Source of the DNA: Girardia tigrina
Taxonomy: Eukaryota
Assembly: GCA_001938485.1 (NCBI GenBank)
Contig: MQRK01235862.1
Location: forward strand, 31,070 to 95,069
Reading direction: 5' to 3'
Length of the DNA: 64,000 nt
The translations under genes and the position numbers were made by a program. Shown one piece after another: positions 11,229 to 64,000 of this stretch. Every line of letters starts with the position of its first letter. Within the stretch, counting starts at the first letter, position 1. Below the pieces are notes generated by a model, which did not search any database, was not told where the DNA came from, and worked only from the letters and a program-made list of their open reading frames with translations.

Positions 11229-11242
11229 TTTTAATATAATAA

Positions 11243-11301
<59 letters not shown>

Positions 11302-11559: not shown

Positions 11560-11606
<47 letters not shown>

Positions 11607-11755
11607 TATATGAATATACGCCATAAATAGTCTGTTGAGTAATAGAAAGCAATGCAATTTCGTAATCATTAAACCTTTTAGACGACTGTTATGTTTATTA
11701 TTATATGTTATATATTATGATTACATATAACTATATTCTTATTATTCTTATTATT

Positions 11756-12286: not shown

Positions 12287-12289
12287 ACT

Positions 12290-12511
12290 ATAAATAAAAA
12301 TGCTTTCTGCATTCTTTCGACACATTTCATTATTTATTAATTCACGGCTTCATATGTAGAAAATACATTCCTGCTGATAAATGCCTTGATCATCATTGAT
12401 TTGAGCGATTTTGAAAAATCTCTTGCAGTCCGATATAAGCAGGTGTACATCTTGAAGTCCATCGAATATCTTTTGATCACGGTTATTAATGATACTGATC
12501 ATCGTTGACAT
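12290..12511 (-). pseudogene. Gypsy gag N-terminal remnant
   Basis: MSTMISIINNRDQKIFDGLQDVHLLISDCKRFFKIAQI resembles 'IFDGSKSKVEEFLKSFGRYAKI' of the gag at 9219. Confidence 0.5.
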
Positions 12512-13925
12512 ACGAGATTATAATTTATTCTTAACAATCAAAATTTCTGCCACATTAGAATAATAAAACAAAAGAGTTCAAGGAAAACAGAATAAAAAAG
12601 AATATTTGGAATGTCTTACATACTAAACATATTATAATATTTAGTTTATAGATATTGTTAGATACATATTTAATTATCCTTGCATGATGTTGTTATAAAA
12701 ATGTTTCGTTTTGGAGACAAGTTAATTGAATACAAAATAAAACTTAATGAGAATTGTTTATCTTCTCCAGCATTTATTTACAATGTATTCACTTATGTTT
12801 ATATTAATTTAAAAAATTTTTTTCAAGTGGTGTCTCGGCTAAACCAATAATTATTGTAACAAAAGTTACTGTAACGAGGTTCAAGTATTATGCACATATA
12901 AAGTAATAATTAATAAACTCTAATATATTTTGAAAATCAACCGTGAAGTCACTGACAATAGATTAAATTTGTATTGACATAAGTTACTTATACCAGAGAC
13001 TTTTAATAAGAATGGATCTTGCCTTTAAAAGAATAAAAGATTTGTATTCATGTTGCTATGACGCTGGGAAGAGACAAATATTTTTAATTTTTATGAAATA
13101 TTTTTTAATATTTTTATCATATTGATTGAAAAAAATTTCAACAAATAAATATAAAAAGTTTAATCTCATTACATAAGATCAAATATTTTTGTCTTCCAAA
13201 GCATATCATTCGGAAAAGGAAATACACTTCAGACTCTGAGCTCTTTCAGTTGCCACTTGTAAAAGACATTTTTAAAATCAGGTAATTCAAATTAGACAAA
13301 AGCCTCCGTTTAAATTCAGTTTTTCAAGTAATTACGATGATGGCTTAAGTGTATGTGAACATTAAGTACAGCTTCTTATTCTAATAAGTCTTAGTAAAGA
13401 TTCAATTAATGTGTTTCAAAATGAATCATCAAAGTGCTCCTGTTTGATTTTAAATTTTAGATAATAAATAAACTCAAAATTGATGAATAATAAGTTATTT
13501 TCAGAATCTTACATTTTTTTTCTTTTATCTTATATTTTCCTATCTCACATCCCTTTTTTATAGATTTTGTTTATGTACTAGATTCTTTACGAACAGGGCT
13601 GATACCACTGTTATCAACCTCGTTACTTTGTGATACCAATTTTGTTGCATTATAATTAGTTTGGATTCTTCTTTTATCTATGTTGTTAAACAATATAAGT
13701 CCAATCATACAATGCTCGCAGCAATATTACCTCTTTGGTTGTTTTTAGCTTTGCTCTGAGGCCATTTATAAAATCCCTGTACTTCGTGAATGTCATTTCT
13801 TCGGGTAGCTTTAAATTTCATTATAAAAGAATGGTAATCCTGGTTTAAAGCAGAATAATATCGCAAATGGAATGCTTCAGATTTGAATTAAAAACAAAAA
13901 AGAAAAAAAATGAAATTGGAATTTC

Positions 13926-13971
<46 letters not shown>

Positions 13972-15313
13972 CAAGTTTTAAAAATAGTATAAAAATTTAT
14001 TTTCAATAAATTTGAGAATATAAAAAGCAATTAAAAAGTATATTGAAAATTGATTAATTTGAAATCGATGGATCGAATACAGTTTGAATTTGGAGATAAA
14101 TCTTAAAGAAACGGTAAAAAAGAAAATTTCTGAAGATAAAAAACGCAATAAATTGCAATAATTCTATTTCAATGACTTATATCAAAATGTTTCCACATTT
14201 AATTATAGCGATTTAGGAGACTATTACTCCACGGACAATTTGAAAATTATCAACCGCTAATTGTAAGATAGTCGCGTGTTTGAGAAAATCAAGGGATTGA
14301 AGGAAGTACAGCATCTCAAGGAGAAGACGCAATTTAAGGAATTGAATCTCCTTCAATCGGAACAAAATAAATTGTAATCGGGAGAATGTGAAATTTTCCT
14401 CATTAGGGCTCAAATCTTTGATTGTCGTGTATATGCGATGACCGGTATTGATATCCTCGAGTCGAGGTCGATATCGGCTATGTGGTCTCTTTCAGGATGG
14501 TGCTGTAGATGGGACCAAGATTGTTTGCAGATCTCCGTCCGAGCGAGAGGATGTCGTGGGTCTGATGAATCTGGTATTTTGGATTCTAAATTCAATCAAA
14601 TTTATTTTTTTCAAACTTGATGTTTTCCTCATTCCATGATAGTTACGATCATTTGTTTGATACTACTAAAAAAGCATTTTAATAATCCATTACTCTTATT
14701 GGGTTCGTGATTAAAATTCAAAGTCATAATTTGCAAACTTTATTTCTAATACAACTTTCATTATTCAAACAAATTTATGAGGAACAATATTTCAGTTACA
14801 TAAACCAGATTTTGAAATTCTAAATACAAATAATAATATCGATGTATATATATATATATATATATATGTGTGTTAATTTATTCAATTTTGCATAAATCCT
14901 ATTTTGTTTTTACGATAAATTAATGCATAAATTATTGCATAAATCCTTTACGAAGACGCAAAGACAAAAGTGTTGACAAGTAAGCAATTAAGCGACTGGT
15001 TTAAATAATCAGTAGGAGTAAGACAAGGTTGCATTCTTTCACCAACACTGTTTAACCTTTTTCTTGAGAGAATTGTTATGGAAGCTGTAAGATAGTTTCG
15101 TTGTTAATTTTTTAATTTTCTGAAATAAGAATTTTTGTTTTTAAAAATTTCGAATTATAATCGAAATTAAAAAAAATAATGGAAAATAGAATTAAAAAAA
15201 AGAAAATAAAAAAAAATTTGTTTAAATAACAAATTTAACCTGTTGTAGATTAATAAATTTTGCAAGTCTTAATTTCTTTTTGGTTTAGAATGTATGATAA
15301 TTCCCAGCCTAAC

Positions 15314-16243
15314 ATGGTAGCAGCGCTAGCGGAATCAATCATGAACCGACTGATTCCCGGCATGTTCCAGATCGGAGAAGACCTAGAAAAATTTATTTCT
15401 CGCTGCAGATATTTTGAAGCAACCGAAATTAATCAAAGGAAATGGCAAAAATGTATTTACTCCATGATATATGAAGATCTTTTGGAAGCATATGAGAACG
15501 CAGCTGGTAAAGCTGATAATTTTGAGGATCGGTTAAGACTAGCGTTTGAGAAACCGAGAGCAACCGCGACGGACTGGGAAAAACTGTTGAGATATCGCAA
15601 AAGTGCTGATAACGCACAGACTTTTTTCAAAAAAGTAGACCGGCTGGTAAAAAATGCGTTGTCGCATAGACTCGAGGAAGAAGAGCTGAAAGCTCAAATG
15701 TTAATTCATTGCATTGATGATGAAGATGTTGTTCGTGAAATTAAATTACGGAAATTAAAGAGTTTCAAGGAAATATCTGAGTTCGTTGCACTCGTGGACG
15801 AAATAAACCACAAAAAGAAGAGCAGGATCAATGCTGTTCGAAGTTATCGAGATGTTGTTCAAAACAGCAGGGCTCCTGAGGTAAATAAAAAATGGGTAAA
15901 TCAGAGTCAGCCGAGAAAACCTCTCCTAAGAGAGGAATCAACCGAGTCCAAATGTTATACTTGTCATCAACCAGGACATTTCAGTCGATATTGCCAACAA
16001 AGAAGACCTGTGCAGTGTTGGAATTATAAAGAGACTGGGCGCATCAGTCGAAACTGTCCTAGCAGACAGCCATTGGTTTGTTTCTTGTGCGGGAAGAAGG
16101 AACATAAGCGAACTCAATGTCCAGAGATACGCTGTGAAAAATGTGGCCGGAATGAGCACCTAGCAGCGGCATGCTTAGTGAACTCTAGCAGACAGAATAA
16201 TGGTTACGACAATGGAAGATCGAGAAATTTATCGGAAATTTAA
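15314..16243 (+). CDS. gag: Gag with four CCHC zinc knuckles (C-terminus frameshifted)
   Basis: ORF 15260-16243: CYTCHQPGHFSRYC, CWNYKETGRISRNC (degenerate), CFLCGKKEHKRTQC, CEKCGRNEHLAAAC. Confidence 0.85.
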   Translation: MVAALAESIMNRLIPGMFQIGEDLEKFISRCRYFEATEINQRKWQKCIYSMIYEDLLEAYENAAGKADNFEDRLRLAFEKPRATATDWEKLLRYRKSADNAQTFFKKVDRLVKNALSHRLEEEELKAQMLIHCIDDEDVVREIKLRKLKSFKEISEFVALVDEINHKKKSRINAVRSYRDVVQNSRAPEVNKKWVNQSQPRKPLLREESTESKCYTCHQPGHFSRYCQQRRPVQCWNYKETGRISRNCPSRQPLVCFLCGKKEHKRTQCPEIRCEKCGRNEHLAAACLVNSSRQNNGYDNGRSRNLSEI

Positions 16244-17935
16244 AATCAACACAATAAATGAAGATGAAGAACGCACATTTGATGATAATGAAGAAAAAAA
16301 CGATAAGCCGTACCCAAACAACTGGGCTCCGCCAATTAGGGAGTTGGTAGGAGCCGAATGCCACTGATCGTAGAAGATAATTCCCACGGATTCGGATGCG
16401 ACTTGGATGTGCAAACGATGAATAAGGTCTATGGATTTGTGGAAAAGAATTTTGAGCAAGTATTCTATGTTAACGCGTTGATTGAGGATCAGAAATCAGA
16501 GATATGTTATAGTAAAATGCAGGGGCGTCCGAGCGTTACAGTGGATATTCAGGGGAAACAGTTGGAGTATTTGTTGGATACAGGAGCAGGTGTTAATGTT
16601 ATGAGTAAGAAGTATTATCAAAATTTGAATAATTTGGTGCGAGAAAAATGCGATATCAATTTGAGAGGTGCCAACGATGGAAAATTGAAAGTATTGGGTA
16701 AAATAGAGGTAGAAGTAGATATATGTCAGACAAGAAAAGCAGCACTATTTATTGTTGTGGAGAGTGTGGTTCCAGAACTGATAAGAGGCATAGTATTCAT
16801 GAAAATTTTCTGTTATTCCATACAAAGGAACGAATCTCAATACAATAATGTATGAAGGGAAGCACGTGGAAGTATGTGTAACATCGAGGCAAAATTCGGC
16901 AGGGTGATAAGGCCAGGAGAGACATTAAAAAGAGTGTTAGATTGCATAGGTAAAGTAGATTCAAAACTGTTAGAGATCATTCAGAATCAGGCAAAAGTAT
17001 TCATGGCTGATAAATGGGATATCGGATGTACCAGTTTAGCAAAACATCATATTAAGGCGAATGGAGAGCCAATTAAGTAAAAACTTTTTCGTCAACCAAT
17101 GCAACTCGAAGAAAAAATCATGGAGACTATAAAAAAATTGTATGATAATAATATCATTCGGAAGTGTAATTCACCTTGGAACACACCATTAATTTGTGTG
17201 TGGAAAAAAGAGGAGAAATATATTCGTATCTGTTTGGATTTTAAGCGCTTAACTGCAATAACGGAGAGACAAGCTTTTCCAATGCCCAATGTTGATGGGA
17301 TGTTGGGTAATTTAGGAGGTGCAAAGTATTTTAGCTCGATTGACCTTGGAAATGCATATTATCAGGTTGAGCTGGACGAAGAATCTCAGGAGAAACGACC
17401 TCTTCTACAAAGCAAGGACAGTATTGTTTTACTCGTATGTCGTTTGGTATAGTGACTGCGCCGGGAACTTTCCAAGAGATGATGACAAAAGTAGTCGGAG
17501 GAATCAAGGGTGCCACTGTATACTTAGATGATATCTTGGTATACACAAAAGATCGGGAGCAACACTTATTGTTTTGAATCAAGTTTTAGATAATATTAGG
17601 AAAACAGGATTGCGGGTGAACCCAGCAAAATGTCAATTGTTGAAGCGGGAAATTAAATTCCTTGGACATATAGTTAACGAAGACGATGTTGAAAAGGACC
17701 CGTCTAAGATTGAAGCAATAAGAACGTTTGGGAAGCCAAAGTGTGTTGGAAAACCCATCGGATGTTGGCACACGCGGGTGCAAGTAAAGTTGAGTATTAT
17801 TTAAGAGACTCTAAGGATTTTGACAATCTGAAAGGTAAGATCAAAGAAATTGTACGCAGTTGTGAATCATGTCAAAAGTATAAAACATATACGGCAAAAA
17901 CAAAAGAGAACACCGAGATTTTTTAATATATTTAA

Positions 17936-18664
17936 GTGGATATTTGTGGACCATTGAAGGAGACTTCTGGGAAAAAGAAATATATTCTAGGCATAACTGA
18001 TCAGTTCGATAAATACATTACGTTATTATCAATATCGAAACAAGATGAAGAGTCGATAATAAAAGGAATAATGCGGAATTGGATACTGAAATTTGGTTCT
18101 CCCAAGGCGATGAATGTGGATTGCGGTAAGGTTTTTGAATCAAAAAAGATGAAAGAGTTTGCAGAGAAACATAATTTTGAAATTAGATTCTCCAGCCCAT
18201 ATCATCATAACACAAACGGACAAATTGAACGTCGATTCCTTACCGTGAGAGAATTGATAAATGCAACATTGCATGAAAGAAGAAGTTCAGACTGGGCAGA
18301 GATTCTACCGGAGATCGAGTTTTCATTAAATGCCTCTTTACAGACGACTATCGAGATGAGTCCAGCTGAAATTATTTTCGGAAGACGCATTAGCAGGGAG
18401 AAATGGGATGGAAGAAATAGCAAGACATTCCAATATGAGCGGGACCAGGAGCCTATCACGCGAAGACAATTCTTCCCAGGAGATGATGTATTGGTAAAAG
18501 TAGAATCTAGAACAAAAGATCGAGGGAGATACGACGGGCCATATAAAGTCGTTCGAAGAGTACATGATAGAAGATATGTTCTTGAAGATATGTCTGGTAA
18601 AACATGTGAAAGAAATGTGGAGAAAATTAAAAAAAATCTTGCGTGCGGGGAGTGTCGTTGTTAA
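17936..18664 (+). CDS. Gypsy integrase core and GPY domain
   Basis: D(ICGP)...D(CG)...E(RRF) catalytic triad, YDGPY motif. Confidence 0.9.
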   Translation: MDICGPLKETSGKKKYILGITDQFDKYITLLSISKQDEESIIKGIMRNWILKFGSPKAMNVDCGKVFESKKMKEFAEKHNFEIRFSSPYHHNTNGQIERRFLTVRELINATLHERRSSDWAEILPEIEFSLNASLQTTIEMSPAEIIFGRRISREKWDGRNSKTFQYERDQEPITRRQFFPGDDVLVKVESRTKDRGRYDGPYKVVRRVHDRRYVLEDMSGKTCERNVEKIKKNLACGECRC

Positions 18665-20713
18665 TTTTTTAATTTTCGGAAATAAGAATTTAGGTTTTTA
18701 AAAATTTCGAATAATAATCGAAATTAAAAAAAATAATAGAAAATAGAATTAAAAAAAGAAAATAAAAAAAGAAAATTTGTTTAAATAACAAATTTAACCT
18801 ATTGTAGATTAATAAATTTTGCAAGTCTTAATTTCTTTTTGATTTAGAATAGATGATAATTTCCAGCCTAACAGAAGCAATAGACGAATAAACTGCAGAG
18901 GAACAAGAATAACCAACCTACGATTTGCTGATGACATAGACCTAATCGACAAAGATGAGGCATAGATTCAGGAACTTACGAACAGATTACACAAAGCGTC
19001 AAACAAATTTTGAATGGAAATCAACAGACAAAAAAGCAAAGTAATGGTTTCAGGAAACCATAACAACGAGGTTAAATTGGAGATTTTCATTGAAGGGGAG
19101 AAGCTGGAACAAGTTAAGAGTTTCAAATATTTAGGCTCTACTATCACAGAGAATGGGGGAAGCGAAGAAGAAATCAGAAGCCGGATTGTTATATCAACAA
19201 GCGCAATGATTAAACTTAGCACAGTTTTTAACCTCAAAGAAATCCATCTCAAGAGCAGATTAAAGATCACTAAGGCTATTGTCTGGGTAACACTCCTCTA
19301 TGGATGCAAGAGTTGGACAATAAATCAAAAGAATATGAATAGACTTAAAGCGTTTGAAATGAAGTGCTACAGGAGAATGCTGAAGATCACGTGGAAAGAA
19401 AAGAAGACAAATGACTTTGTTTGCAGGAGAGTGACAGAAATACTAGGTAAACGATCGGAATCAATAGAAGAGATCATCAAGAGAAGGAATCTGAAATTCT
19501 TCGGTCATCAAATAAGAAAACAAGCACTAGTAAAGCTTATGATTGAGGGAAGAGTGAAAGGAGAAAGACCAAAGAGGCAATGAATGAATGATTTAAAAGA
19601 ATGGACTGGACTGACTATGGAATGTCTGAGAAAAAAAACTAGAAATAGAAAGATGTGGCGAAGTCTTGTTTATAATTGGGTGCACCCACGGCCCAACGGC
19701 TAAGGTCAAAAAGAAAGAAAGATTTTTGAATTAATTTAATGATATGATTAAAAGATTAAACATTTAAAAAATAAGATTGAATATTAAATATAACGTATTT
19801 TCAAAATTTCTAAAATAATAAAATATTAAAAATGGTTTTTTAAAAAAACAACGCAAAATTTATAAAAACAGCATATAAGATTTCAGTTTGAAAATCAAAA
19901 TTATAAAAACAGGATAAAAGATTAAAATAAAAAAAACATATTTAAACATTAAATAATATTTTAAAAAATATTAATTAGAAAATAATAATTTTTACCATTT
20001 CTCAATAAATCCCAAAATAATAAAAATATCATCAATTTATTAAAAATGCACTTAATTTAAATTTTACTAAAAATTAATAAACTTAATTTTAATTGTGAAA
20101 TTACAAATATGAACTTATCAAATGATTATTTTAATTATGTCCCAATAGTCAATCACTTTAAATTTAAATAAAAAACACCAATTTCATTCTGGGTGGGAGA
20201 ATCACCATTCTAAATTTGTTGTTTGAATCGATCAAATTTGAATGATGTCTTTTTTGATCTGATGTGTTGGGTCTATCGATTCTGAAAGTGTGAGTAAAAA
20301 AATTGTGGTTCTTTGTGTTTTGGTCCTATTATTGGGACTATACTGTAATGTTCTCGTTGGAACAAAAGCTGTTTATTGTAGCAATTGACCAGCATTTCGT
20401 GGTGGGTGAGAAAATCGACTCCTAGGATGGATTTTCGGACGTTGGCGAAAAAAAAATTTATCCTGTTACAGTTTTGAGCAAAATAAATTTATCCTGTTAC
20501 AGTTTTGAGCAAAATAAATTTATCTACTGACGATATGGAATTATAATCTAATTTTTATAGTTTAAAATCATTTTGATAAGTATTTTTGTTTAAAAATTTT
20601 AAAAAGTTGAATGTTGTTTTGACTTTATGAGGGGTTAGTTTTAAGTTTCACCAAAATAGTTTATTATTTTTTTTTAATTTGAAAATTTAAAAGAAATAAA
20701 TTAACAATTACAA

Positions 20714-47810: not shown

Positions 47811-50800
47811 CAGATTGTCCTTTAAAAAATGTCGTTTTTACAAATCCAGATAATATAGAAATAACTTTGCACCAATGTAATTCAAAAATAAAATTTCACA
47901 AAATTACCATAATGCTGAATGACCAGCTGGCAGTGGTGTTTCAGTTTATCAAACTCATGTCTCAAGATCTAAATACTCATAATCTCCTTGGAATCTTCCA
48001 GGAGGTCTCCAAGGAATGAGAATCAACGAAAACGTTATTTGTGCGACGCATTTCCTGGAGAGGGAATATGAGGTAGTAGCAAATTTTAGTGTCAGGAGAG
48101 TATGTAGGTTGGTTAAGACGATGGCAACGTTTCGTCTCAGGGAAGGTGGTAGTTGCCCTGAATACATAGGCTGGCGCATTTTCATGAATCATCATCGTAT
48201 TTTCCCATCGGGCGGCTTTTCTTGTTGACAGCCCAAAGACCCATCCACTTCTTCGCCATGGGCATTTGCCTGATTATTTGAGGAACATCACCGTCCGGGG
48301 GAATCAAAGCTTTCCTAGAAGCTGCTTTCCCAATTCCACACGCATAAAATTCCTTCTCAACAGTAAAGACAAGGTTTTTCTGCATGTTTCCTTTGTCCAT
48401 CACCTCCACAATTTTCTGGTAGGATTTCCCCCCGCGTTCTTTGTGCACATCAGTCAGATTGTGTGGGATCCACTTGCAGTGAACATTGCGAAATCCAAGG
48501 TCGTTGGGAATGATGATTATAATCACCTGTCTTTTAGAATATTTTAGCATTTCCAATGCCAAATGTAGAAGAAATGCTAAATACATTAAATGGAGCAAAA
48601 TACTTCAGCACAGTCGATTTGGGGAGTGAATATTATCAAGTTGAATTGGAAAACGATTCAAAAATAAAAACTGCATTTTCGACAAAGAACGGCCAATAAT
48701 GTTTTAAAAGAATGCCATTCGGAATTGCAGCTGCCTCATTGACATTTCAAGAAACTAATGACAAGAGTGTGAGGAGAATTAAACTGGAAAGAAGCAGTTG
48801 TATACCTGGACCATATTCTAATCTTCGCAAAAGACAAAGAAGAACATTTCAGACGAATCGAACACATATTTCAAAAGATTAAAGAATCGGGCCTTCGGAT
48901 AAACCCTGAAAAGTGTCAATTCATGGTAGAAAAGACAAAATGTTTAGGATATGTCGTGAGCAAAGATGGTATAGAGACGGATAAAACGAAAATTGAAGCA
49001 ATTTCAAAATTTCAAAATCCTTCATGCATTAAACATTTAAGAAGTTTCTTGGGGCTAACGAACTATTATAGAAAATTTTTGAAGGATTATGCAAAATAAT
49101 CAAAAATACTGGAAGGGCTATATGGAAAAAATAAAGATAAAAAATTGACATGGATAAAGGAATGTGACGAAGCATTTCAGACATTAAAAGATAAAATGAC
49201 AAAAACACCGATCCTAGCATATCCAGATTTCGAAAAGTAGTTTATACTGGATACAGACGCCAGTTTTGATACAATCGGGGCATTACTTGCACAGAAGGAT
49301 GCATATGAAAGGGAAAGAGTAATTGCCTATGGATCCCATAAGATGAACAAACACGAAATGTGATACTGTATTACAAGAAAAGAATTATTGGCAAACTAGT
49401 ACTTTACCCAAAACTTCAAACATTTCTTATACGGAAAGAAGTTTCTACTTAGAACGGACTATAAGGCTATCACATTCATGATAACAACGAAGAACCCAAT
49501 AACTCCACAATTCAAAACTTGGATAAACTTCCTTAGTGGACTTGACATGAGGATGGAATACCGCAAGGGCAAAAAACACACCAATGCAGACGCAATGTCG
49601 AGAAATATATGTGGACCATGTGTACAATGTCAAACAAGGCACAATGACGCTAAAAAAGGAAAAGTTTAAACTAGAGTCCTAGCATTTACCGAAGATTCAG
49701 AAGAGTTCATTTGGCAGACGAATGATGAAGAAATATAACAGATTAAAGAAAATATTAAAATTGGAAAGACAAAAGAATGGCTACTGAAAATCAATATCAT
49801 GACGACAAGAGATAACAAATATTGGATCCCTATGAAGAAGAGAAAAGACTTTATAGAAGATATACATAAAATGTTATGATTGCCTAAGTAAGAAAGTATG
49901 CAATTACATAAAAGATGATTTCGATATGTTTGAAATAGGACACCAGATAAAGAAAATCATACAAAGTTGCGAAAACTGCCAGAAAAGGAAGACGCTGACG
50001 GCAAAAACGAAAGAGAAACACATTAAACAATCTGCCGAAGAACCATTTCAAAAAATTTACATGGACTTTTGCGGACCATTCAGAAGGACTATGAATGGAT
50101 ACCAATACATTTTAGCAATAATCGATCAATTTAGTAGGTACATCAGCTTGACCGCAGTTGCACACCAAGACGAGAAGACTACACGAAAGGTACTATTAGA
50201 GAAATGCACTTGGAAATTCGGACAACCAAAAGAGATACACGTTCATAGAGGGAAAACTTTCGAATCAGCACTCTTTAAAGAAACGACGAAGAAATTTAAG
50301 ACAGAGATAGTCCACTCAAGCCCTTATCACTATAACACTAAAGGGATCATAAAAAGACAATTCAGAACAATAAGAGATGCCATAAATATACTATTAAAGG
50401 ATGAAATGCATAATAGACACAATAATAGACATTCGAGAGTCAGCCAATAATTCAGCCTTCACTTCTTCAACTAATTGGTGTCTTTTCTCGGTTTTTGGAC
50501 GACCACTTTCTTCAGTGCGATCCAATGATGTTCTAGGGCCATCTTCAAACTCTTTCACTATTCTTTGAACTTGTCGAAGTCCGATTATATTTTCCCCCGA
50601 TGCCGTTGTAAGACGTTCGTGTGTTTTGCTTCACTGCATTCCATTTCTGCGACAGATTTCAATCACAACGTTTAGCTGTTCAGCAGACGGTTACCGCATT
50701 CTGTACTGTAAATACGTGAAAAATAATTGTATTAAAATTAATTAAACTCAAAAAATTTATACAATACTTATAGAAATAAGTTACATAATACAGAATTATA

Positions 50801-50839
50801 TTTTTCTTTTAAAAACGACATTTCTTAAAGGATAATCTT
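47811..50839 (-). mobile_element. Mariner-like element with TIRs, interrupted by a gypsy pol fragment
   Basis: TIR CAGATTGTCCTTTAAAAAATGTCGTTTTTA with an imperfect inverse at 50810-50839, TA flanks, 'SGRP', 'CKWIPHNLT', 'HENAP', 'QPTYSPD'. Confidence 0.85.
48528..50410 (+). pseudogene. Gypsy pol fragment (RT-RNase H-IN), same family as the 5270-9522 element
   Basis: 'MPFGIAAA', 'LRSFLGLTNYY', 'ILDTDAS', 'NADAMSR', 'MDFCGP'. Closely parallels 5280-6640. Confidence 0.9.
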
Positions 50840-51122
50840 TAATCGAGCTATTTTAACCTTTATCATCTAAGTACTATTTTTTTGTAAAAATAAATTAGTT
50901 TTTCTTCAGATGCTGCTTATTGGTTGTCTAGTTAAGATATTTAATGAGTCTTCTGCAATTTGATCTCCACTTACCAAAGATAATCCTATGTTCACAATTG
51001 GGAACGTTGGCACGATGGTGTTAATGTTTAAGTAAAGTATCGTTACCAAGACAAAAAAACTAATAAATGAAACATTATATTTTTGATGATCAAATAAACA
51101 TCATTTACAGCATTTAAATGTA

Positions 51123-51965
51123 CGAGGGGTGTCACAAAAGTTCACGGACTGATAAGTAACAACAAATTCAAAAAGTTTATTCTAGTTAACAAAACTGATC
51201 AATCCTCATCAGACTCGCTATCGAACTTTTCAATATAATCACCATTCAGTTTCACACACTTTTCTCATCTCTGTGTCAACTTTCTAATACAATTATCGAA
51301 GAAAATAAGCGGGGACTCCGCAAACCACGCACTGACTGCTGTTTTCATTTCATCTAAATTCGCGAAATGATGCCCTCAAAGTGGTTTCTTCAATGCCGAG
51401 AAAAGGTGATAATCACTCAGCGTGAGGTCCGGTGAATATGGGGGGTGAGGAAAAAGGGTCCAGCCCAATCGTTGCATGGTACTGACAGTCAACTTCGCTG
51501 TTTGGGGACATGTGTTGTCCTGTTGCAATAATGGGATGGATGACAACTTTCCCCGCCGTTTGTTCTTGAGAGCTTTGCGTAGATCTTTATCGAGCAGGTT
51601 CGTGTAGTATGCGCTATTGATGGTGACCCCCTTTGGCAGGTTCTCAATGTTAATTATCCAATTACAGTCCAAAAAGACTGTAACCATTACATTCCCGGCT
51701 GAAGGGACGATCTTCGCCTTTAAAGGGGGTCTGTCAACTGGACGGCACCATTGACGGGACTGCTCCTTGGTTTCAGGAAGATTAAACGGGAGCCACATTT
51801 CGTCTGCTGTCATAATCTGTGACCAGACGCCTCACCGAGATCATGAACCAGTTGCAGCAGTTCTTGACAGACAGACTTTCGATTAACCTTCTGGTCGTTG
51901 TTGAGGAGGCGCGGTACCCACCTGGCAGTCAGTTTCCTCATATGCAGCTCCTCTGGCATGATGCC
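51123..51965 (-). mobile_element. Mariner (DD34D) 3' half with TIR
   Basis: 'RWVPRLL', 'TADEMW', 'LQQDN', 'HPPYSPDLTLSDYHLF'. TA-CGAGGGG terminus. Confidence 0.9.
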
Positions 51966-54900
51966 AAAGTAAAGGCCATTTGAATCTTTATCTGGAACCA
52001 ATCTATTGGCAAGTTGTGCGATCCCGCTGCGGTACCAATCCTTGTTCTTAGAAGCGAAGAAGTGGTGATACCCGTTTTCGACCTCGGCCAGATTATTGAA
52101 GCTGCGACCACGGAGAAAGTGTGCCATAGAGCGAAAAAGGTGATAGTCGAATGGTGCAAGATCCGAACTATACGCTGGGTGTGGAAGATTAATCAATTAT
52201 TTCTCGCTTTCAATGGCGTCGAGATTTTTGATTTTTTTCCTTTGTTTGCTTGGTGGTGTGCGGTTTTGCATTGTCCTGTTGTAGAAGAACTCGCTTTCCA
52301 TTGATTAAAGCGGAGTATTTCTCGCCAAGTGCCGCATCCATTCGATCAAGTTGGGCGCAGTAAAGGTCAGCGTCGATGGTGCGACCATTTGGAACCATCT
52401 CGAAGTGAATCACGCCTTCGAAATTCCACCAAACACACAAAAGTGCCTTCCTTGAGAAACAATCTCGTTTCGCTACCGGTTTCGCCATTTGTCCGGCGTC
52501 CAACCATTGATTTTGTTGGTCTGGATTACTGAAGTAAACCCACTTTTCATCGCAAGTTACAATTCGACGGATGAAACGGTCATCGCGCGGATTTTCAAGC
52601 AATTTTTGACAAGTTTCGAAACGCTTTTCGGTTTGAATTTGTGTCAATTCATGAGGCACTTCTCGACATCATGTCACGACCCTTCTGAGCACAAACATTT
52701 TTGAAAGCTCTTGAGCCCCCAGTGGCTATTAAGGATCAGCCACAACCCTACGTCTATTTTGATATTCACTTGTATCTACCTATATAATGGGTCGGACGTT
52801 TCTTCTCGCTCGACATCTGCCTGGCAGTGCCGAGTTTGAAGGACCTTCCGGTTCTGATAAAGATGGGATGAGCTATGGGCCCCCAACCTACAGAGTGTCG
52901 CTCGGGGATGATCTATCTATATTTTTCAGAAGTATTGCGTTCGAATTTCTCTTTGTATTTTAAACTTGTCGCACCGTCATGTGTACTAGACTTGTGGCAC
53001 GGTAATATGTTAGTCATGCTAGACTTGTGGCACTATTATGTGCTTGTACGTTTATGCTCTGTGGAACTTGTGGCAATGTGGAATTAGCTTAACCTACAGC
53101 ATATCGACAATCACTTGTCCCCTTATTAGTTTTATATTGTTACGCCGCCTATGATTATTTATCGAGATTTTTATCTATGTTGTAAAGCTTATATTGGTAT
53201 CGTTAATTCATATCCGCTACAAACTCATCTTATAACGCAACATTAGCCATGAACTTCCAGTTTAAAACAAGAAACTAGGGAAATTAATAACTCAATCGCA
53301 TTACCTCGAATAGGTAAACTCTTAATAGTCGATTTTAATTCAATTATATCTAAGTATTCACAAAATCCATATCAGATTAAAATTAAAGACCAATAAGTTT
53401 TCCCAAAAGAAATCTTAATAAAGTTTTCAGTAAAATTATCGATAACATTTTTGACGAAATTTCCAACAAAATTTCTAGCAAGATTCGTCTTATCACCAGA
53501 ACGAAATATGGACAATTTCGATTCAAATCAAATTGTCATCAACTTAATTTATTAATTTACTCGCAAAAATTTATTAATTACTAGTTATAACTCGTTATAA
53601 TTTACGTGTTAGATTAAACCTTAATCAAATCAAATCGCTTTTAAAATCATTATAGAAATTGTCAAAATTATCAAAATAAATAGAAATTGTCATGTAATTT
53701 AAGTCGAGCAATTCCAATTCTGAAATCCTTTAAAGTTTTCATGAATGAATAATAAACGGATAAACGTAAAATCATCAAATGTAAACTATCAAATGTCTCT
53801 TAAATACCATTAAAATCATTTAGCACCAAAAAATAGAAATTAAAAATTAAAATTATATTTGTTTTAGTATATCAATTATATCTAAAGGTCACGTCAAGGG
53901 TTCGAACTTCTGGAAGACCGAGACTCCCCTAACCGGTCGTCAGATCGTTCGGCCAATATGAACCGGGGACTCTATCCCGGCAAGAATCGACTCAACGGGA
54001 TCGATTTGGTTAAACGTATCGAGGGAGATCGACATTACGTCGACGATCATCGGGACCACGTGGTCCCCATCTCTCTTTAACAGCTCAGGTGATTGGGAAT
54101 CCAGTTGGGGCATTTACGGCGAAAGTTGACGGCGGCGACGACGGGCGTTCGTTACTTTTTAATACGGGAAGGTAATTTATTCCTGTAGTGGTTCAATTAA
54201 CAATAATAGTGGTTAAATAAAAATTCATAGATAAAAACATAAGTCGTATATAAAAATTCAAATTATAATTTAAACCGAAATTTACATTTATAACAGGATT
54301 TTCTTATTATGGCAAAGCGGATTCGGAGGAATGCTCGTCGGTTTCTCTTCGAATATTGTCGTGTAGAGATGGTTCTCTTATTGCTTGATCGCGTCGGTAT
54401 CGGGTGATCGTCCTGGCGTCGAATGTTACCAAGTTCTCGTCTCTTCGTTACGGATGTTTCGCTCGTCGGTTCAATTACCTATCAGTCGCTCTGATCTCAA
54501 TTGATTTCTTCGAAGCCTTGCGAATGTAAGTGCGTTCCATTCGTGAAAATCGTTGTCTTTAGAATTGCTTTTGAAATTGTTTTGTTATTTTATGGACGCA
54601 TGTTCTAAGAATGTTTGTCACATTTATAGGGCTGGTGAGACACCCTGTTAATCCTCGTGGACCAATCGACTTCTGCCAGGCAAGTGTCTGGACTTTTCTC
54701 GTGAGCTGATTCGTCGATTCGGGTAAGTGTGTTTCGATAAAAATTTTTAAAATTTGAAATTTTTATTTTATTATAGGAATCGATGTCGGTGTGTCGTGGC
54801 ACATCTGCAAATTCTAGAATCCGTGTGCGGCTGTGTCACCGATAACTCGGTTAAAATTTTCGGCGATGTCTATTATTATACTGGCCGTTGAGTCATGGTA

Positions 54901-57736: not shown

Positions 57737-58267
57737 CTGAAAAAATACTCTTTAATAAAGCTAAAATAGGATAAAGTTCTACTGAACTCTTGACTACAGC
57801 AAAAGTTCCATGTAGGCTTCGAAATGTTATTCATAATGTGAAAAGGTAAGTGGAAAATAAGTAGTGTTCAGTAAATAGTGAAAACAGTTGCCAAATGATT
57901 TAAATAAACAAAGAACGACAATGTATAACGAACCGAATCATGATAAAAATGAAATCTTTCCACATTTGTCATAAGATGATTTCGTTTTAGAAATTTTGAA
58001 TTTGATATTTCAACGATGGAATTTGATTATACTGTTATTTGTGTGAATTACGAGGATCTATAAAAATGAAGATAAAAACAAGACTTCAAAATTTACAAAT
58101 ATATATTTAATTATGTACACGAGTTACAATTTCAAACAAAATCAATATTTAGATTCTTAGACCTTATTTAGATTTTGTAATTTGGATAATGGGACCACAA
58201 TGTTTTGTTAATCCCAAGGTAATTTAAAAGATATATATATATATATATATAATTATATAATCGTAAT

Positions 58268-58770
58268 TGTCACGTCCTTCGTACTTTTTTATGATTCTCG
58301 TTTCGCTCTAGTGTTCAATTTTTTACTCTCTCTTTAGTTACGATAATCGACACCTTTTATAAGCTTGACTTGAATAAATTATCTCCGCGTGAGGTGTCGA
58401 ATGAATAATTTAATACTTGAAATATAATTCTGATCTTCTCTTAATCTTGTACTTGTTAATTACTTTGACCTTGAACTTTCAAAATATTTTGTCGTACTTT
58501 TTGTGCGCTTTTCTTCTTTTTCTTCTACCTTTTATATTACTTTCCTTGATATATAATTCTTCTTATTTATCTTATTTACAGTTCTGTTTATCCTTTTAAT
58601 ATAAATACCTTATTTTCAAATTCTGAATATTTATGTCTAAAATTCAATTAAATCTAATTATTTTTATATAATTTATATTTATTATAGTAAAGAGGTAAAT
58701 AATCTTTTATTATACCTATTTAATTAAAATAAATATTAATTGTTAAAATTTATATTTTATATACCTAACA
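58268..58770 (-). repeat. Putative 3' LTR of the exonuclease-carrying element
   Basis: TGTTAGG...CGTGACA on the minus strand, TATAAAAGG followed by GAGAGAGT, and an upstream GGGGAC...ATTTT motif typical of gypsy 3' ends. Confidence 0.65.
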
Positions 58771-58926
58771 ATTCGTCGGGGGGCGATAAAATTTATGTCC
58801 CCATAAATAAAACAATCAAAAGTACTATACATATGAAAGAATTTGAGATATACATAAATCAAGATAAGAAAAGATAGGATACACAAGATAAAAATGAAAA
58901 TCAATCAAATCAATAAAATGTTATTG

Positions 58927-61290
58927 TTAATCATCATCCTCAGTTAGATCAATCGGAAGTTCATTGAAGGGATCGTTCTGAAAACTCGGTTCCATCTTCA
59001 CAGGATATGGATGCGGCGAGTACCATGGTTGATCCGTGTTCCGCGGAGTCACTCGAAAACCCTCATCGATGTCTACCTTTTGGAGGAGAGGCGGGGTAGA
59101 ACGAAGACCGCCTGATTGGCCTCGGTACCAACGATTGTACCTAATGATATCTTCGTCGTTCCGAAAGAAGCGGTTTCCTTTAACGACAGGTGCCGGTTGA
59201 TCGCTGATGTAAGGGGGAGTGACGAGTCGTTGCTGGGTACATATAAGACTTTCGGAAGGGTTAACAATCGTACAGGAAGAAAAAGCGACGTGAGAAGGTG
59301 AGAAAACCTTTGCAACCTTCTCCGGATGACGACCTAATGTCCCCTTTGACCAACGCTTAGCTTTAATGATTATGGTCCTAGGTTCTTCAAGGGTATTCTC
59401 CAATATTTTAGGGGCGAGCCTCTCAGAAATCGGAGTTCGCGTGCCGGACAGAACCCTTAACTGGTCTGGATGAGGCGGTGGAGGCATTTCCTCCAAGGTA
59501 GGTATATAAACGGGACATGCATCCGGATCCATTGGTGGTAACTCGTATTCGAAATAATTCAAAGGAGCAAAAAGGTCCAATACATCAGCCTGTGGGGTAT
59601 CAACCTCCTCTCTGGCAGAATGAAAGGATGTTACCGAAGATATGTCAGAAAGTGCCTTAGACATCCTCCAATAATTGGCATCCAACCATTCTTCCGCCGT
59701 GGAAGAAGGTGGTCCGTGAGTTTGTGGAGGTGAGTTCTCAAATAAATTTGAGGCATGGGTAGGGGATAAATCATCCATCCACCTACTTTCTACTTTCCGA
59801 TAAATTCTACGTAGGGCGTCTGTATCCTCATGGGAATTATGGACATGGATCTGAATTTGTTCCTTAAGGATATCCCATGCCAAAGCCTTTAAGCCAAAAA
59901 AACTACCATTATTTTTTGGTTTGAGACCCATCAAGTGAAAAACTTTAGCCTTGGTGGTATCGCGAATTCCTAACAGAGTGTGAGTGGGTATGGCCAATCT
60001 TCTGATCTCCATTTGGATATCATGACCTACAAGTATGTTGCCATATAAATGTCGGTGTAGCTCTGCAATTACCTCATATTCATCCGCAGAACCTATGAGG
60101 CTGCCATCTTCCAACCCATGACACTCGGTGGCCCAATCAGTTATTCTAGTACGGAACCTAACTCGAGTGTTCATCAATAATTTTCCGTTGAAATTCATGA
60201 GCGTAATTGCCGCTACATGAAACCTCTTATCTGCATCTTTTACAAATTCCGCGTCAAGAAATCTCAAGCGAAGCCTAATGTCCTGTAAGGAGAGGTTTTT
60301 TCTAATAAAAGATGACCTTTGGGCGACCAGATTTTCGCTAACTTGAAAGTCCGAATTAATCTGAATATGCGAGAGCTGGTACCACGGGTTTGGCACATCA
60401 TCCTGGAGCAAAAACTCTACGGCTAGGACAGATATTTCTTTAGGGGAGGATATGTAGATGTCATTTATCTGTTCTGCCACATCGTCTTCCAGGTTCTCAG
60501 CGATGTCAATTGCAATAGAATGCAATTTCGGGACATTTACCAATACCTTAGTGTCGCTGACAATGAGAGGGGCAGAAGCAGCGTGGATACACAAGGTAAT
60601 TATTCTGTAATGTGGATTATTAAATGTTGTGGGTATACTGTGCCTGTATAATCCCATTATATCGGAAACCTTCCATCTTCGTGTCACGGTAGTCTTTATT
60701 ACTACCATTTTTTTGTTTAGGTCATTATAAATCAGCCGGTTTTGGTAAAATCTAGGTGAAGGATACACTGCTACAAACAATTTCTCCATGATCCTAGTCA
60801 AACCGGACTGGACGTCACGATAGAAGGTGTTGCCATAATGCATAGATCGTATGGCTAAACCGAACAATTTTGTGGACTGGGCCGAGATAGGCTCGTTGGG
60901 TGTCCAACTAGAAGGTAAAGGAATCTCAATGGGACAGATGGGCTGTTTCAAGAAAGCGCGTATGAGTCTATCCTTACATTCCTCTCTGCGCGTAAGTATG
61001 TCGAGGTGAGGTTTCTCTTTATTGATTCGAGTATCCCTAACAACAACTGGTAACTCCTCACAATGGCGATCAACCAGTTCCTTACGATTTCGATATTGGG
61101 AAAAAGAAAGATTATAGTCATAAGACAGCTCATTTTGATCGAATGTTTGATGAAAGTCATTATATTTTTGATTCATTTTGGTAAGAAACAGTTGAGAGGA
61201 TTGGGAAACTGGATGCATCTGCAAAATAGAAAACATTAACTTATTGTGCACATTTGCACGAATTAGAAAAGAAAAGAAAAAATTCAACAC
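58927..61290 (-). CDS. Accessory protein with a REX4/ISG20-like DEDDh 3'-5' exonuclease domain (probable ATG at 61218)
   Basis: 787 uninterrupted codons. ExoI 'FLDAEFV', 'ITDWATECHGL', ExoII 'ILVGHDIQME', 'IRDT', 'GLKALAWDILKEQIQ', ExoIII 'HNSHEDTDALRRIY'. Confidence 0.85.
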   Translation of the reverse strand: MLNFFFSFLIRANVHNKLMFSILQMHPVSQSSQLFLTKMNQKYNDFHQTFDQNELSYDYNLSFSQYRNRKELVDRHCEELPVVVRDTRINKEKPHLDILTRREECKDRLIRAFLKQPICPIEIPLPSSWTPNEPISAQSTKLFGLAIRSMHYGNTFYRDVQSGLTRIMEKLFVAVYPSPRFYQNRLIYNDLNKKMVVIKTTVTRRWKVSDIMGLYRHSIPTTFNNPHYRIITLCIHAASAPLIVSDTKVLVNVPKLHSIAIDIAENLEDDVAEQINDIYISSPKEISVLAVEFLLQDDVPNPWYQLSHIQINSDFQVSENLVAQRSSFIRKNLSLQDIRLRLRFLDAEFVKDADKRFHVAAITLMNFNGKLLMNTRVRFRTRITDWATECHGLEDGSLIGSADEYEVIAELHRHLYGNILVGHDIQMEIRRLAIPTHTLLGIRDTTKAKVFHLMGLKPKNNGSFFGLKALAWDILKEQIQIHVHNSHEDTDALRRIYRKVESRWMDDLSPTHASNLFENSPPQTHGPPSSTAEEWLDANYWRMSKALSDISSVTSFHSAREEVDTPQADVLDLFAPLNYFEYELPPMDPDACPVYIPTLEEMPPPPHPDQLRVLSGTRTPISERLAPKILENTLEEPRTIIIKAKRWSKGTLGRHPEKVAKVFSPSHVAFSSCTIVNPSESLICTQQRLVTPPYISDQPAPVVKGNRFFRNDEDIIRYNRWYRGQSGGLRSTPPLLQKVDIDEGFRVTPRNTDQPWYSPHPYPVKMEPSFQNDPFNELPIDLTEDDD

Positions 61291-61340
61291 AATTATAGCG
61301 AAATATATAATTGCAAGGCTCGTACAGCCAAAAATGATTT

Positions 61341-62539
61341 TTATACCTGTGTTTCCTCTACGTACACTCCTGGCAGGTATTTCTCCAAGGAGGTACGATA
61401 TAAGTTTAAAGCCGTTTGTTTCTTTTTATATTTTCTATACAAGAATAATATGTGCCACATTATTAAAGAACTGAGCGAAAACAGTCCTAAGCTGAACAAT
61501 ATGAATGGCCATATGTGTAATTGTAAGTTTTTGTGAAATATTGTATGATCATTTGTTCTATAAAAGATAGATTGAATTTTTGTTAAAGAATCGGAGTCAA
61601 TAAATTTCTCATGTGTTTTTACTTGTGGTAAGGTAAATAGTGAACTATATTGTACAAAAATATCCCATGAAAGACAGTGAACTGTGAGGTTTGATTCTGG
61701 ATTATCTATTAATGTTTTCTGTCGTGACCATTTTATTTCGAACGCTGCTGTTAAAGCTATTTCTCTGTAGATAAGAACATACATATTTGTATGATTCTGG
61801 TATCCGTCAAAATATATTGCGCTAAGTTCATTATTATTTTGCCAATAACATTGTCCTAGACAAATCTTGAAGGAATATTTATTGTTACAAGCTCCGATAT
61901 TAACAAGGACGGTATGTGGGACAATTTGTATTTGAATTTGTCGTTCTTTTAATATCGTTTTCGATGTTGCACTTACGCCTCGTAAAATAAAAGAGAGAAT
62001 AATCAATATGATTAATCTCCAATATTTAGGGTTAAACATTTGATTCCTATTTATCTGCTCTTTCTTTTTCTTTTCCGTGATCATGGTATTTCCGTTTCCC
62101 TCATCATTTATTGTTAATCTCTTTTGATGCTGATTATGTAATTTCAGACTTAATATTTCATCTTTTCCTTTTTGTGTATTTAGTTGTCTAATTCGATCTA
62201 AATCTTGGTGCCTTACGTATGAAACAACGGCCTTCTTTCCATCTCGTGATATAATATCATTATTTTCGATTATCTCAAAGACTGATTTTACTAATTCTGA
62301 ACCGTATTTCTTACTATATTCGGATGCGGTGTTTCCATGCTGATCCAAAAGCATCAAATTTGAATATATAATAAGTGGTGCTACAACTGTATGAAAGGGT
62401 GCTCGATGTATTATTGCTTCCATTAACGCAGTTAATCCATCATTTCCTTGAGTATCTATTAATCCTGGATACTCACATAACTTTATCTGTTTAAGTAACT
62501 TTGCAGCTTTGTGAAATTTATGTCGAATTATAACAATTA
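61341..62539 (-). CDS. Ankyrin repeats, internal signal sequence, Cys-containing ectodomain and C-terminal TM (env-position ORF); 5' end broken by a Helitron
   Basis: 'GNDGLTALMEAI', 'DQHGNTASEYS', 'KYWRLIILIILSFILRGVSA', 'IWPFILFSLGLFSLSSLIMWHILFLYRKYKKK'. Confidence 0.75.
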
Positions 62540-62866
62540 CTAGTAAATAACCCGTCATGTATGACGGGTAAAATTGAGAAAAGAAATTTCATTTTTTAAT
62601 TTTAATTTGAGTAATTTTGGATGTGGAACAGATGCATTAAAACAAAGAAGACNNNNNNNNNNNNNNNNNNNNNNNNNNNNNNNNNNNNNNNNNNNNNNNN
62701 NNNNNNNNNNNNNNNNNNNNNNNNNNNNNNNNNNNNNNNNNNNNNNNNNNNNNNNNNNNNNNNNNNNNNNNNNNNNNNNNNNNNNNNNNNNNNNNNNNNN
62801 NNNNNNNNNNNNNTTATTAATATAAATATCTACTTACAATTGTAAGTAGATAATATGAGCGTTAGT

Positions 62867-62905
<39 letters not shown>

Positions 62906-62929
62906 TGAGTGACTTGGGCTTTTATAAGA
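62540..62929 (-). mobile_element. Non-autonomous Helitron
   Basis: 5' TC(TTATAAAAGCCCAAGTCACTCAC) with (TGCC)n, 3' hairpin CCCGTCAT-AC-ATGACGGG then CTAG. Inserted between A and T. Spans an N gap. Confidence 0.8.
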
Positions 62930-63043
62930 TAAAATTAATGGTGTAGCATTCCATATTGGATCTTTTACAGCAAATAAATGTGGGTATTTTCTTACCGCAC
63001 ATTTGAAGAACTGGTCATTATAAATGTATCCTTTCGCGAAATG

Positions 63044-63321
63044 TTATCCAATATCTTCCTGTAACACTAAAATAGTTTCATCTTCTTTACTTTGCTTTTG
63101 TGATAGTTGTATTTTATGATCAATTTTTCTATCTTTTGATACTGGTAGATTAATTTCTATTACTGCTATTTCATCTGATTGAGTTTGTGATCGGAGATTA
63201 TATCTTTTAACTGGCTCATTTTCCGCCTTTTTACATCTATTTATGTGTACAACTATTGGATCAGTGTTCTTGTTTTTTATTATAAATAGATTTGTGGGTG
63301 TCACTTTGACAACCTCATAAG
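63044..63321 (-). pseudogene. Gypsy integrase C-terminus (GPY/F-type)
   Basis: 'YEVVKVTPTNLFI...PIVVHINRCKK...RYNLRS'. Confidence 0.75.
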
Positions 63322-64000
63322 TATTACGGAAACGGACTAGTGGGGCAAAGATTACTACTAACCCGCCTACGCAATCTTATAATAGACCAAATAAAAAAAG
63401 TATATACACAACTGTCGAAAATATAATTATATATATAAACAATTATCAACAGATGACAGCCAGGAAAAGAAAGGAGTCGTTTGATCACAAAAGAATTATG
63501 TCGATAACACTAGCGAAAGCCAAAACAGATTTGTCACAAAAAACAAACAAAATGTTTACTTCAAACTGAGGCTTCGACAAACGCTCTTGGACTGAGATAT
63601 CGATATTCGGCTAAGGTGCCAAAAATGTCGTAGCTCGATTGTCTGTTCCGTTCGATTAGATTGACGACTGTCTTTGTTCTTCTCGAAAATTAGGATTCTT
63701 CTATTAATTGCCCTTGATCGGTGGTTATGATTTGTCAGATGTATAGTCCTGTCTCCGGATTCTTAAAATAGTCCACTGGATTAAGGAAACCAGTCGACGG
63801 CGATTTTGAACCGGAATTTTATTATTCGGCGACTTTTACCGATGTCCTAACGATGGATCAGTAATTATAGAGATCACGATATCGTTAAGATTATTTTGAA
63901 TTTTGATTTAATTTTTTTTAATTGTTCGATCAATCGTTTTTATTGATCATTTTTAATTTTCATATTAATTTTATTATTGTCATTGGCAATATTCCAATGA
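63322..64000. repeat. Probable LTR-type insertion interrupting the integrase
   Basis: The integrase frame is lost abruptly at TATTACGG (...CCGTAATA on minus, like the TG...TA LTR ends). The sequence is non-coding and CpG-rich. Confidence 0.4.

Follow-up and report, generated by a model that had tools for sequence, protein, structure and literature searches.

The decayed 3' end of a Burro-like Ty3/gypsy element in Girardia tigrina, with a likely second type I glycoprotein and a likely frameshift into an exonuclease

A stretch of 64,000 nucleotides of Girardia tigrina DNA (assembly GCA_001938485.1, contig MQRK01235862.1, positions 31,070 to 95,069 of the forward strand), referred to below as the window, contains part of a long terminal repeat (LTR) element of the Ty3/gypsy type that resembles the Burro elements of planarians. 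The copy in the window is dead and constitutes the decayed 3' end of such an element. The analysis covered the window and other copies of the element in the same genome, and on balance it favors reading the region as the end of one long frame that likely encodes, after integrase, a second type I glycoprotein, the cytoplasmic tail of which likely shifts into an exonuclease.

Layout of the window copy and its lesions

The features described here lie on the minus strand, with the exception of an unrelated insertion of 4,965 bp to which no strand is assigned. This insertion starts at 63322 (63322-64000 for the part in the window), splits the C-terminal region of integrase (IN) and has a 5-bp target duplication; 2,920 bp of it are N, and its sequenced parts hold no open reading frame (ORF) of 90 codons. 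The integrase region in the window is thus limited to its last ~92 codons, a C-terminal end of the GPY/F type (PF22938-like) with its linker (63047-63321), which is the last part of pol in the window; the rest of pol lies beyond it, past the insertion. A premature stop codon (63044-63046) is followed by the N-terminal part of an ankyrin-like region up to the first repeat (62935-63043), a non-autonomous Helitron (62540-62934), and the remaining ankyrin-like repeats with a basic linker (62022-62539; repeat starts at 62441 and 62339). On the minus strand, a frame of 110 codons closes at the premature stop, a frame of 69 codons then reaches a stop inside the Helitron, and a frame of 415 codons (62588-61341) is found beyond the insert. 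A preliminary description of this locus had correctly placed the stop and the open frame after it; of the 38 open codons that it counted, the last two are wholly or partly Helitron, and the frame continues for 69 codons in all.

Other copies were sought in the same genome with the ankyrin region as query. Scoring 40 of 518 candidates gave 43 matches at 85-100%, the best 30 of which were taken as loci, so that 29 of them (L002-L030, including two contigs that resemble near-duplicates) are available for comparison with the window. At the position of the stop, all 29 have a sense codon. The stop is therefore private to the window copy and not ancestral. An ancestral stop after integrase, whether passed by readthrough, as first proposed, or with a separate ORF behind it, is seen in the window copy only, and families 2 and 3 of the element, described below, also continue in frame from integrase; this explanation can hardly be maintained. 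What does stand of the first proposal is that the region from the ankyrin-like repeats to the TM helix remains in the frame of pol and lacks a separate start codon: the ATG at 62558 comes from the Helitron, as had been recognized, since it falls in the hairpin of the insert (62568-62551).

The identification of the insert as a Helitron was also sound. The 395-bp insert, which includes a gap of 161 N, shares with non-autonomous Helitrons a 5' TC (as the family start), a 3' hairpin followed by CTAG, an A/T target site, the absence of a target duplication and a high copy number (1,222 first-look candidates), and because it holds no RepHel ORF it is considered non-autonomous. All 12 of 12 loci share the same 3' end, from hairpin to CTAG. 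Family members begin TC-TTA-TC in five of the seven loci whose 5' end is readable by motif, the window copy and L059 being the deviants; the window copy has a T at the second base, and this altered base was the source of an earlier misreading. The insert in fact begins at 62934, 5 nt earlier than had been assumed, which makes the insertion precise and removes the 1-nt offset previously reported at the join. The site is empty, with neither extra bases nor an offset, in all 29 other loci. All three lesions, namely the stop, the Helitron and the insertion of 5 kb, belong to the window copy alone.

The long frame and its C-terminal ectodomain

Across copies, the order of segments is gag (with one CCHC knuckle), a BCL2-like segment, a hydrophobic signal, a class III fusogen, a transmembrane (TM) segment, protease (PR), reverse transcriptase (RT), ribonuclease H (RH), IN, ankyrin-like repeats, a second signal, an ectodomain, a second TM segment, a tail and ORF2. 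The order PR-RT-RH-IN is that of Ty3/gypsy elements. For the window's own copy, gag, fusogen and PR were located beyond the window (L097, L044). The fusogen matches PF24664 with E values of 8e-22 and 1.6e-21; the second value is that of the window's own copy, in its part outside the window. In two copies, LTR pairs were found at distances of 14.6 and 14.8 kb, with identities of 97.8% (650 bp) and 91.8% (755 bp); each of these copies carries an internal duplication of ~0.7 kb, and the element measures ~14.5 kb. TG..CA ends, a primer-binding site and a 4-bp target duplication are present in one copy that is readable at both ends; the primer-binding site matches tRNA-Lys. Interrupted remnants of the 3' LTR lie at 58059-58772 in the window. 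In the sole copy with a readable LTR start, the stretch upstream of the 3' LTR (L093:2966-2990, contig C245599) is C-rich and has no purine tract.

Several frames span the joints between these segments. The end of the fusogen and the protease motif share one stop-free frame in 24 of 30 loci, and in L169 the fusogen is in frame with the segment upstream of it. Integrase C-terminal and ankyrin motifs share a stop-free frame in 11 of the 26 loci that hold both, and the frame is stop-free from the integrase C-terminus to the tail in 5 of 20. A natural frame of 1,218 aa in L033 runs from RT through RH, IN and the ankyrin-like repeats into the ectodomain, and a family-3 frame of 1,278 aa runs from IN to the tail. 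The whole of ORF1 is estimated at ~3,200 aa. Some observations speak against such continuity: the frame is broken between IN and the ankyrin-like repeats in 15 of the 26 loci, and the longest reconstruction, 3,084 codons from gag to mid-ectodomain in L169, includes 974 X in five gaps, so that end-to-end continuity in a single copy is not demonstrated. Moreover, the copies are related to one another, and counts across them do not represent independent events. The breaks occur at scattered places and are read as private decay of copies.

The BCL2-like segment gave six matches to PDB sequences, all of which are BCL-2 family members aligned over BH1-BH2 and all of which are weak (E 0.35-2.2); Pfam gave no match to it. 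It ends right before the fusogen signal peptide (L169:7021-7530), and a cleaved signal could act as a membrane anchor of the C-terminal type found in BCL-2 proteins. Between PR and RT is a spacer of ~100 aa, to which Pfam gave no match. In gag, an Asn/Gly-rich low-complexity stretch (L043:8799-9308), when read in a different phase, is open over a long Ile-rich sequence, which is probably a by-product.

After integrase, three repeat motifs of ankyrin type are present as first described, with Pfam support that is weak. Ank_2 was matched in three relatives, with E values of 0.088, 5.5e-4 and 0.019, all below the curated cut-off; Pfam detected no ankyrin in the window ORF, in two further relatives or in the family-3 segments scanned, and for the window ORF it returned no family at all. 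A profile of the ankyrin region gave no match in the PDB at E<=0.01. The assignment is thus at the level of motifs. The ratio of nonsynonymous to synonymous substitution rates (dN/dS) in this region is 0.10-0.20 (21 pairs).

The ankyrin-like region is followed by a predicted internal signal peptide (61968-62021), with a basic n-region, a hydrophobic core of 11-13 residues and a V-S-A end; its hydropathy over 11 residues reaches 3.6. As a segment of similar build precedes the fusogen, both may be read as internal signal peptides. The ectodomain, of the type called A below, extends over 61515-61967 and comprises 151 aa, not the ~170 aa of the preliminary description. It contains a Cys pair (61862-61848) and two sequons (61796, 61691), and a beta-sandwich of ten strands is predicted for it. 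A predicted TM helix and a basic stop-transfer patch rich in lysine (61437-61514) follow. In 25 aligned ectodomain sequences, which diverge down to 34% identity, the Cys pair and the sequon at position 55-58 are present in every case and the second sequon in 20. Ectodomain dN/dS is 0.08-0.33 (25 of 28 pairs estimable), so that this was a functioning coding domain. Together, these features indicate that the region likely encodes a second type I surface glycoprotein, predicted to be glycosylated, second because the element already has a class III fusogen.

A structure model of the first 122 ectodomain residues, built from 38 aligned sequences, has ten strands (pLDDT 85.7, pTM 0.80). Its strands 1-7 superpose on immunoglobulin (Ig) and fibronectin type III (FN3) domains with Z scores of 7.0 (root-mean-square deviation 1.8, 66 residues aligned), 6.6 (2.4, 73 residues) and 6.4 (2.3, 74 residues); the mark used for structure comparison was Z 8, which none of these superpositions reaches, and the model has three extra strands. 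The model is confidently all-beta, and its likeness to Ig/FN3 domains is weak. Viral structures gave no match to this model at E<=0.001, the top ones being CD47-like and CD2-like proteins with weak scores (E 0.019-0.15). An earlier model (pLDDT 65) and the searches made with it yielded no clear match, the ectodomain profile matched no PDB sequence at E<=10, and the ESM Atlas gave no usable match; a missing structural match does not prove a new fold.

That the ectodomain is itself a small fusogen had been doubted in the preliminary description, and with good reason. A type I topology and a place after pol, where env usually lies, would suit a fusogen, and a fusogen was proposed for the ORF3 of 220-230 aa of rotifer elements in the available text on them (PMC5408684). 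However, the element already has its class III fusogen, a separate PF24664 domain upstream of the protease, and the model is a small beta-sandwich that includes neither a helix bundle nor an elongated fusion domain, which makes this alternative very improbable. A different alternative, which takes up the role favored in the preliminary description, accepts the same architecture and supposes that the glycoprotein remains at the surface of the host cell and modulates immunity or a receptor there, as a decoy or a block to superinfection, and that the BCL2-like segment, the ankyrin-like repeats and the exonuclease complete a host-modulating set. The Ig/FN3-like strands (Z 6.4-7.0, deviation 1.8-2.4, 66-74 residues) and the CD47-like and CD2-like proteins among the top viral matches would fit a modulator, and the fold scores, all under Z 8, and the lack of a viral match at E 0.001 count against it.

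The ectodomain varies between copies in a manner that is not paralleled by the segments before it. In family 1, to which the window copy belongs, two ectodomain types, A and B, are ~45% alike, and either of them is found on copies that are more than 90% alike in integrase and ankyrin regions. On a tree of 51 ankyrin regions (from 52 loci picked out of 96 rows, duplicates omitted), the A/B label changes eight times, at least five of these changes being forced by supported branches, and a single-clade origin of the ectodomain type is rejected (p-AU 4e-112). The two types have been shuffled across lineages as a cassette. A profile search led to two distant relatives, which belong to further families, 2 and 3, in the window's own genome, with more than 100 matches each. 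Compared with family 1, they are 62-78% alike in integrase, 38-50% in the ankyrin region and 50-63% in the TM segment and tail, and the proximal ectodomain of family 2 is 29-32% alike. Their ectodomains are longer and show two and three segments with the same Cys pattern. The membrane-proximal domains are homologous to that of family 1, scoring 34-60 bits on the family-1 profile against 11.9 bits for the best of 2,800 decoys. The ectodomains of families 2 and 3 probably consist of two or three such domains.

These conclusions are tempered by several results. The distal repeats of families 2 and 3 score at decoy level and are recognized by pattern only. ORF2 has also been exchanged between families (L191, L204), and swapping is therefore not special to the ectodomain; in addition, a fragmented assembly can create false mosaics by mixing copies. 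Whole-domain dN/dS of the ectodomain gives no signal of an arms race or of diversifying selection. In L191 and L204, a family-2 ectodomain is joined to a family-1 ORF2, the switch lying within the conserved tail, and the frameshift signal described below may serve as a recombination point.

Outside this genome, protein databases gave one match of near length and none among 5,290 longer candidates, and a profile search of 1.84 billion representatives gave five matches. One of these (P0005) was rejected as a false match to repetitive sequence, and two others (P0003, P0004) agree along their length with families of this genome, at up to 93% and 83%, and so do not show spread to other taxa. Metagenome contigs contained no relative by protein or by pattern. 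Short contigs related to the element, of RNA or DNA origin, occur in a leaf-litter metatranscriptome (run X2).

The end of the frame and ORF2

The cytoplasmic tail ends in T-Q-V and, with the ORF1 stop, is double-coded with ORF2 (61341-61436). The tail peptide is the best-conserved part of the region across families, because the DNA doubles as a slippery heptamer, a hairpin and the start of ORF2. The heptamer, which is U UUA AAC read in phase with ORF1 (61404-61410), is followed after 6 nt by the hairpin (61361-61397) and, farther on, by a stretch open only in the -1 frame (61219-61346). The elements of a -1 signal are therefore present: an in-frame X XXY YYZ heptamer, a 6-nt spacer, a downstream structure and an open -1 frame.

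In three sets of distinct stretches, the heptamer is kept in 49 of 50, 12 of 13 and 22 of 22 (83/85). A 35-place pattern of the heptamer stretch has 358 exact matches in the window's own genome, as against none for the reversed control. Over 47 stretches, heptamer and hairpin have frozen synonymous sites and a codon identity of 0.989, whereas that of the TM codons next to them is 0.791. In the 120 nt past the ORF1 stop, the -1 frame is free of stops in 36 of 45, 9 of 13 and 15 of 15 stretches of three sets (60/73, 73 of 76 stretches having been scored), the corresponding numbers being 3, 0 and 0 for frame 0 and 2, 0 and 0 for frame +1, with 2-7% expected by shuffling. Pairing of the hairpin is possible in 90% of cells, as opposed to 24-54% when the hairpin is slid.

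ORF2 (58927-61410, -1 frame) consists of an N-terminal half, a DEDDh-type exonuclease and an acidic, Pro-rich C-terminus. In the window, the exonuclease motifs are ExoI at 60261 (D-x-E), ExoII at 60027 (an acid) and ExoIII at 59841 (H-x4-D); the ExoII acid is E in family 1 and D in family 3. PF00929 is matched above its cut-off in L036 (E 4.8e-7) and L239 (E 3.6e-7) and below it in the window (E 2.4e-4), and a DEDDh-type exonuclease is present in ORF2 of all three families. The N-terminal half of ORF2 (60280-61218 in the window, ~310 aa) is conserved in the three families and has no Pfam match.

These data make it probable that some ribosomes shift by -1 at UUUAAAC and thereby extend the tail into the exonuclease. 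Certain properties of the region are less favorable to this proposal. The stability of the hairpin is modest (z -1.86, with 10 of 200 shuffles equally good), and its covariation does not exceed that of shuffles (269/500), none of 14 pairs showing two-sided change. A -1 product would carry an extra hydrophobic segment (the peptide at 61320-61255), and with the topology of that segment the exonuclease could end up on the membrane's wrong side. Finally, 58 of 73 stretches, by a count made by eye, keep an acceptor-like YAG at 0-2 nt from an in-frame ATG that follows it, which makes splicing of ORF2 possible; in the window, the -1 stretch lies between a donor-like GT at 61346 and an acceptor-like CAG immediately ahead of the ATG at 61218.

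A spliced message read from ORF2's own ATG would be a likely second route to the exonuclease. That a spliced or trans-spliced message is the only one, with the heptamer and hairpin forming some other cis-acting RNA element and no frameshift occurring, is improbable, if to a lesser degree than the ancestral stop or the small fusogen. A pyrimidine tract accompanies the YAG before the ATG in those 58 stretches, with a gap of 0, 1 or 2 nt that would fit a non-coding upstream exon; donor-like sites occur at the end of ORF1 and, in both leaders examined, 12 codons into gag; and ORF3s of rotifer elements are, in the available text, typically expressed from spliced messages (PMC5408684). On the other hand, splicing alone leaves unexplained why only the -1 frame is open through an AT-rich stretch in diverged sub-lineages with in-frame length changes, and why a canonical heptamer stands in the right frame and is followed by a spacer of 6 nt; this ATG is missing from some of the open copies (L006, L027, L163). 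Part of the stretch is present in two of the seven listed runs, as assembled contigs, RNA status being a guess for two of three. Some of these contigs read through the acceptor-like site, and they decide neither splicing nor expression; no joint across 61346-61219 was found among the contig matches listed, although contigs cannot show absence.

Proposed synthesis, role and relation to known systems

In the element, gag, the BCL2-like segment, signal 1, the class III fusogen, its TM segment, PR-RT-RH-IN, the ankyrin-like repeats, signal 2, the ectodomain, its TM segment and the tail are all in one frame. According to our model, the chain would probably cross the membrane of the endoplasmic reticulum four times, and signal peptidase would free two glycoproteins, one-to-one with Gag and Pol. 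A single ribosome pass, with cuts by signal peptidase and the element's protease, would thus yield Gag with the BCL2-like segment, a fusogen-TM-Pol-ankyrin product and the small glycoprotein. The first account of the locus had correctly placed the C-terminal region in the pol frame; the fusogen farther upstream, the swapping of cassettes and the -1 signal into the exonuclease ORF escaped it.

The small glycoprotein might, tentatively, have an accessory part in the envelope and bind a molecule on the host surface while working beside the fusogen, by analogy with class III systems in which attachment is left to a separate protein. Such a role would explain why the fold is kept and yet is swapped and lengthened as a cassette, and as Gag, fusogen, Pol and glycoprotein would be made in equal amounts, a structural role fits. 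It is ranked ahead of the host-surface modulator, which appears doubtful, as one-to-one synthesis with Gag and fusogen suits a structural component. The T-x-V end of the tail, which resembles class I PDZ ligands, would favor a modulator; the T-Q-V sequence may nevertheless be fixed by double coding or by a splice donor. That Burro elements carry apoptosis regulators, according to the part of their description available (PMC6431247), also agrees with a modulator.

In the usual depiction, a retrotransposon that carries an envelope has a single env gene, and a frameshift, if there is one, separates gag from pol. In the present element, one frame holds gag, fusogen, pol and a predicted second glycoprotein, and the frameshift signal is at its end and leads into an exonuclease. 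In nidoviruses, UUUAAAC and a downstream structure between ORF1a and ORF1b lead to an ORF with a DEDDh exonuclease, and the class III fusogen gB of herpesviruses is paired with a separate small Ig-type receptor-binding glycoprotein. The likeness of the element to both is by analogy only, and homology is not claimed. A reading that goes further, and that we hold to be rather unlikely as a whole, is an invertebrate retrovirus-like lineage with two glycoproteins for entry: a polyprotein cut by signal peptidase would yield a class III fusogen before Pol and, after Pol, a separate and swappable glycoprotein that binds a receptor and has one to three beta-sandwich domains, to which a terminal -1 shift like that of nidoviruses would tether a DEDDh exonuclease.

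The closest known elements are Burro and GYPSM1, giant gypsy-like elements of planarians, of more than 30 kb, with an ORF1 of 4,873-5,140 aa and two or three knuckles, as given in the available text (PMC6431247). Common to these and to the present element are a single polyprotein, gag with a CCHC knuckle, an in-frame env of mononegavirus type, PR-RT-RH-IN and accessory ORFs (PMC6431247), the comparison being with this published description; the BCL2-like motif directly before env and the ankyrin repeats of Burro have weakly supported counterparts here. The present element differs in its size (~14.5 kb), in its ORF1 (~3,200 aa) and in its single knuckle, and the gag-to-env segments scanned gave no BIR or MATH match, unlike the BIR/MATH/SMC cargo of Burro. 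The same text reports a dUTPase-like segment between PR and RT, found with HHpred, and, as far as it was available, mentions for Burro neither another signal peptide nor an ectodomain or TM segment at the C-terminus, no frameshift and no exonuclease (PMC6431247).

GAG-ENV-POL errantiviruses with an env of the HSV/gB type (HSV, herpes simplex virus) have been described from Platyhelminthes, Nematoda and Bryozoa, including six Schmidtea entries of 14.5-18 kb, and share with the present element the order gag-env-pol and the class III fusogen; the available main text has no occurrence of ankyrin, exonuclease, frameshift, accessory or Burro, and nothing on a glycoprotein after integrase (PMC13524379). 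In LTR elements of bdelloid rotifers, the ORF3 that follows pol encodes a DEDDy exonuclease or a small TM protein, the latter a short Cys-containing protein with two TM segments. The two are alternative, stand-alone ORF3s there, whereas here both occur together and the TM protein is part of ORF1; the exonuclease of the present element, in contrast, has a DEDDh-type His motif and a -1 signal (PMC5408684, from the portion available). The accessible parts of two further sources (PMC8532177, PMC13465017) contain nothing on element structure. Burro-type gag-env-pol polyproteins with ankyrins are already known; the C-terminal glycoprotein module and the proposed terminal frameshift may be new, no description of a post-ankyrin glycoprotein, of cassette variation or of a terminal frameshift having been found in the literature searched, in which coverage of the primary Burro descriptions is incomplete.

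If the proposed architecture is correct, the families provide a natural series of ectodomains, two one-domain types and longer ones, for asking how invertebrate class III fusogens find target cells, as well as a frameshift signal that is short and strongly conserved and lends itself to direct assay. Planarians contain many Burro-type elements, one of which reportedly matters for the survival of stem cells (cited in PMC13465017), so that the surface and nuclease cargo of such elements is relevant to regeneration biology.

Elsewhere in the window are other decayed gypsy elements (5433-9372 on the minus strand and 15257-18664 on the plus strand), and LINE pieces (long interspersed nuclear elements) and mariner-type transposase fragments occur among regions 1675-18700 and 49857-52670, all of them named by eye from translations.

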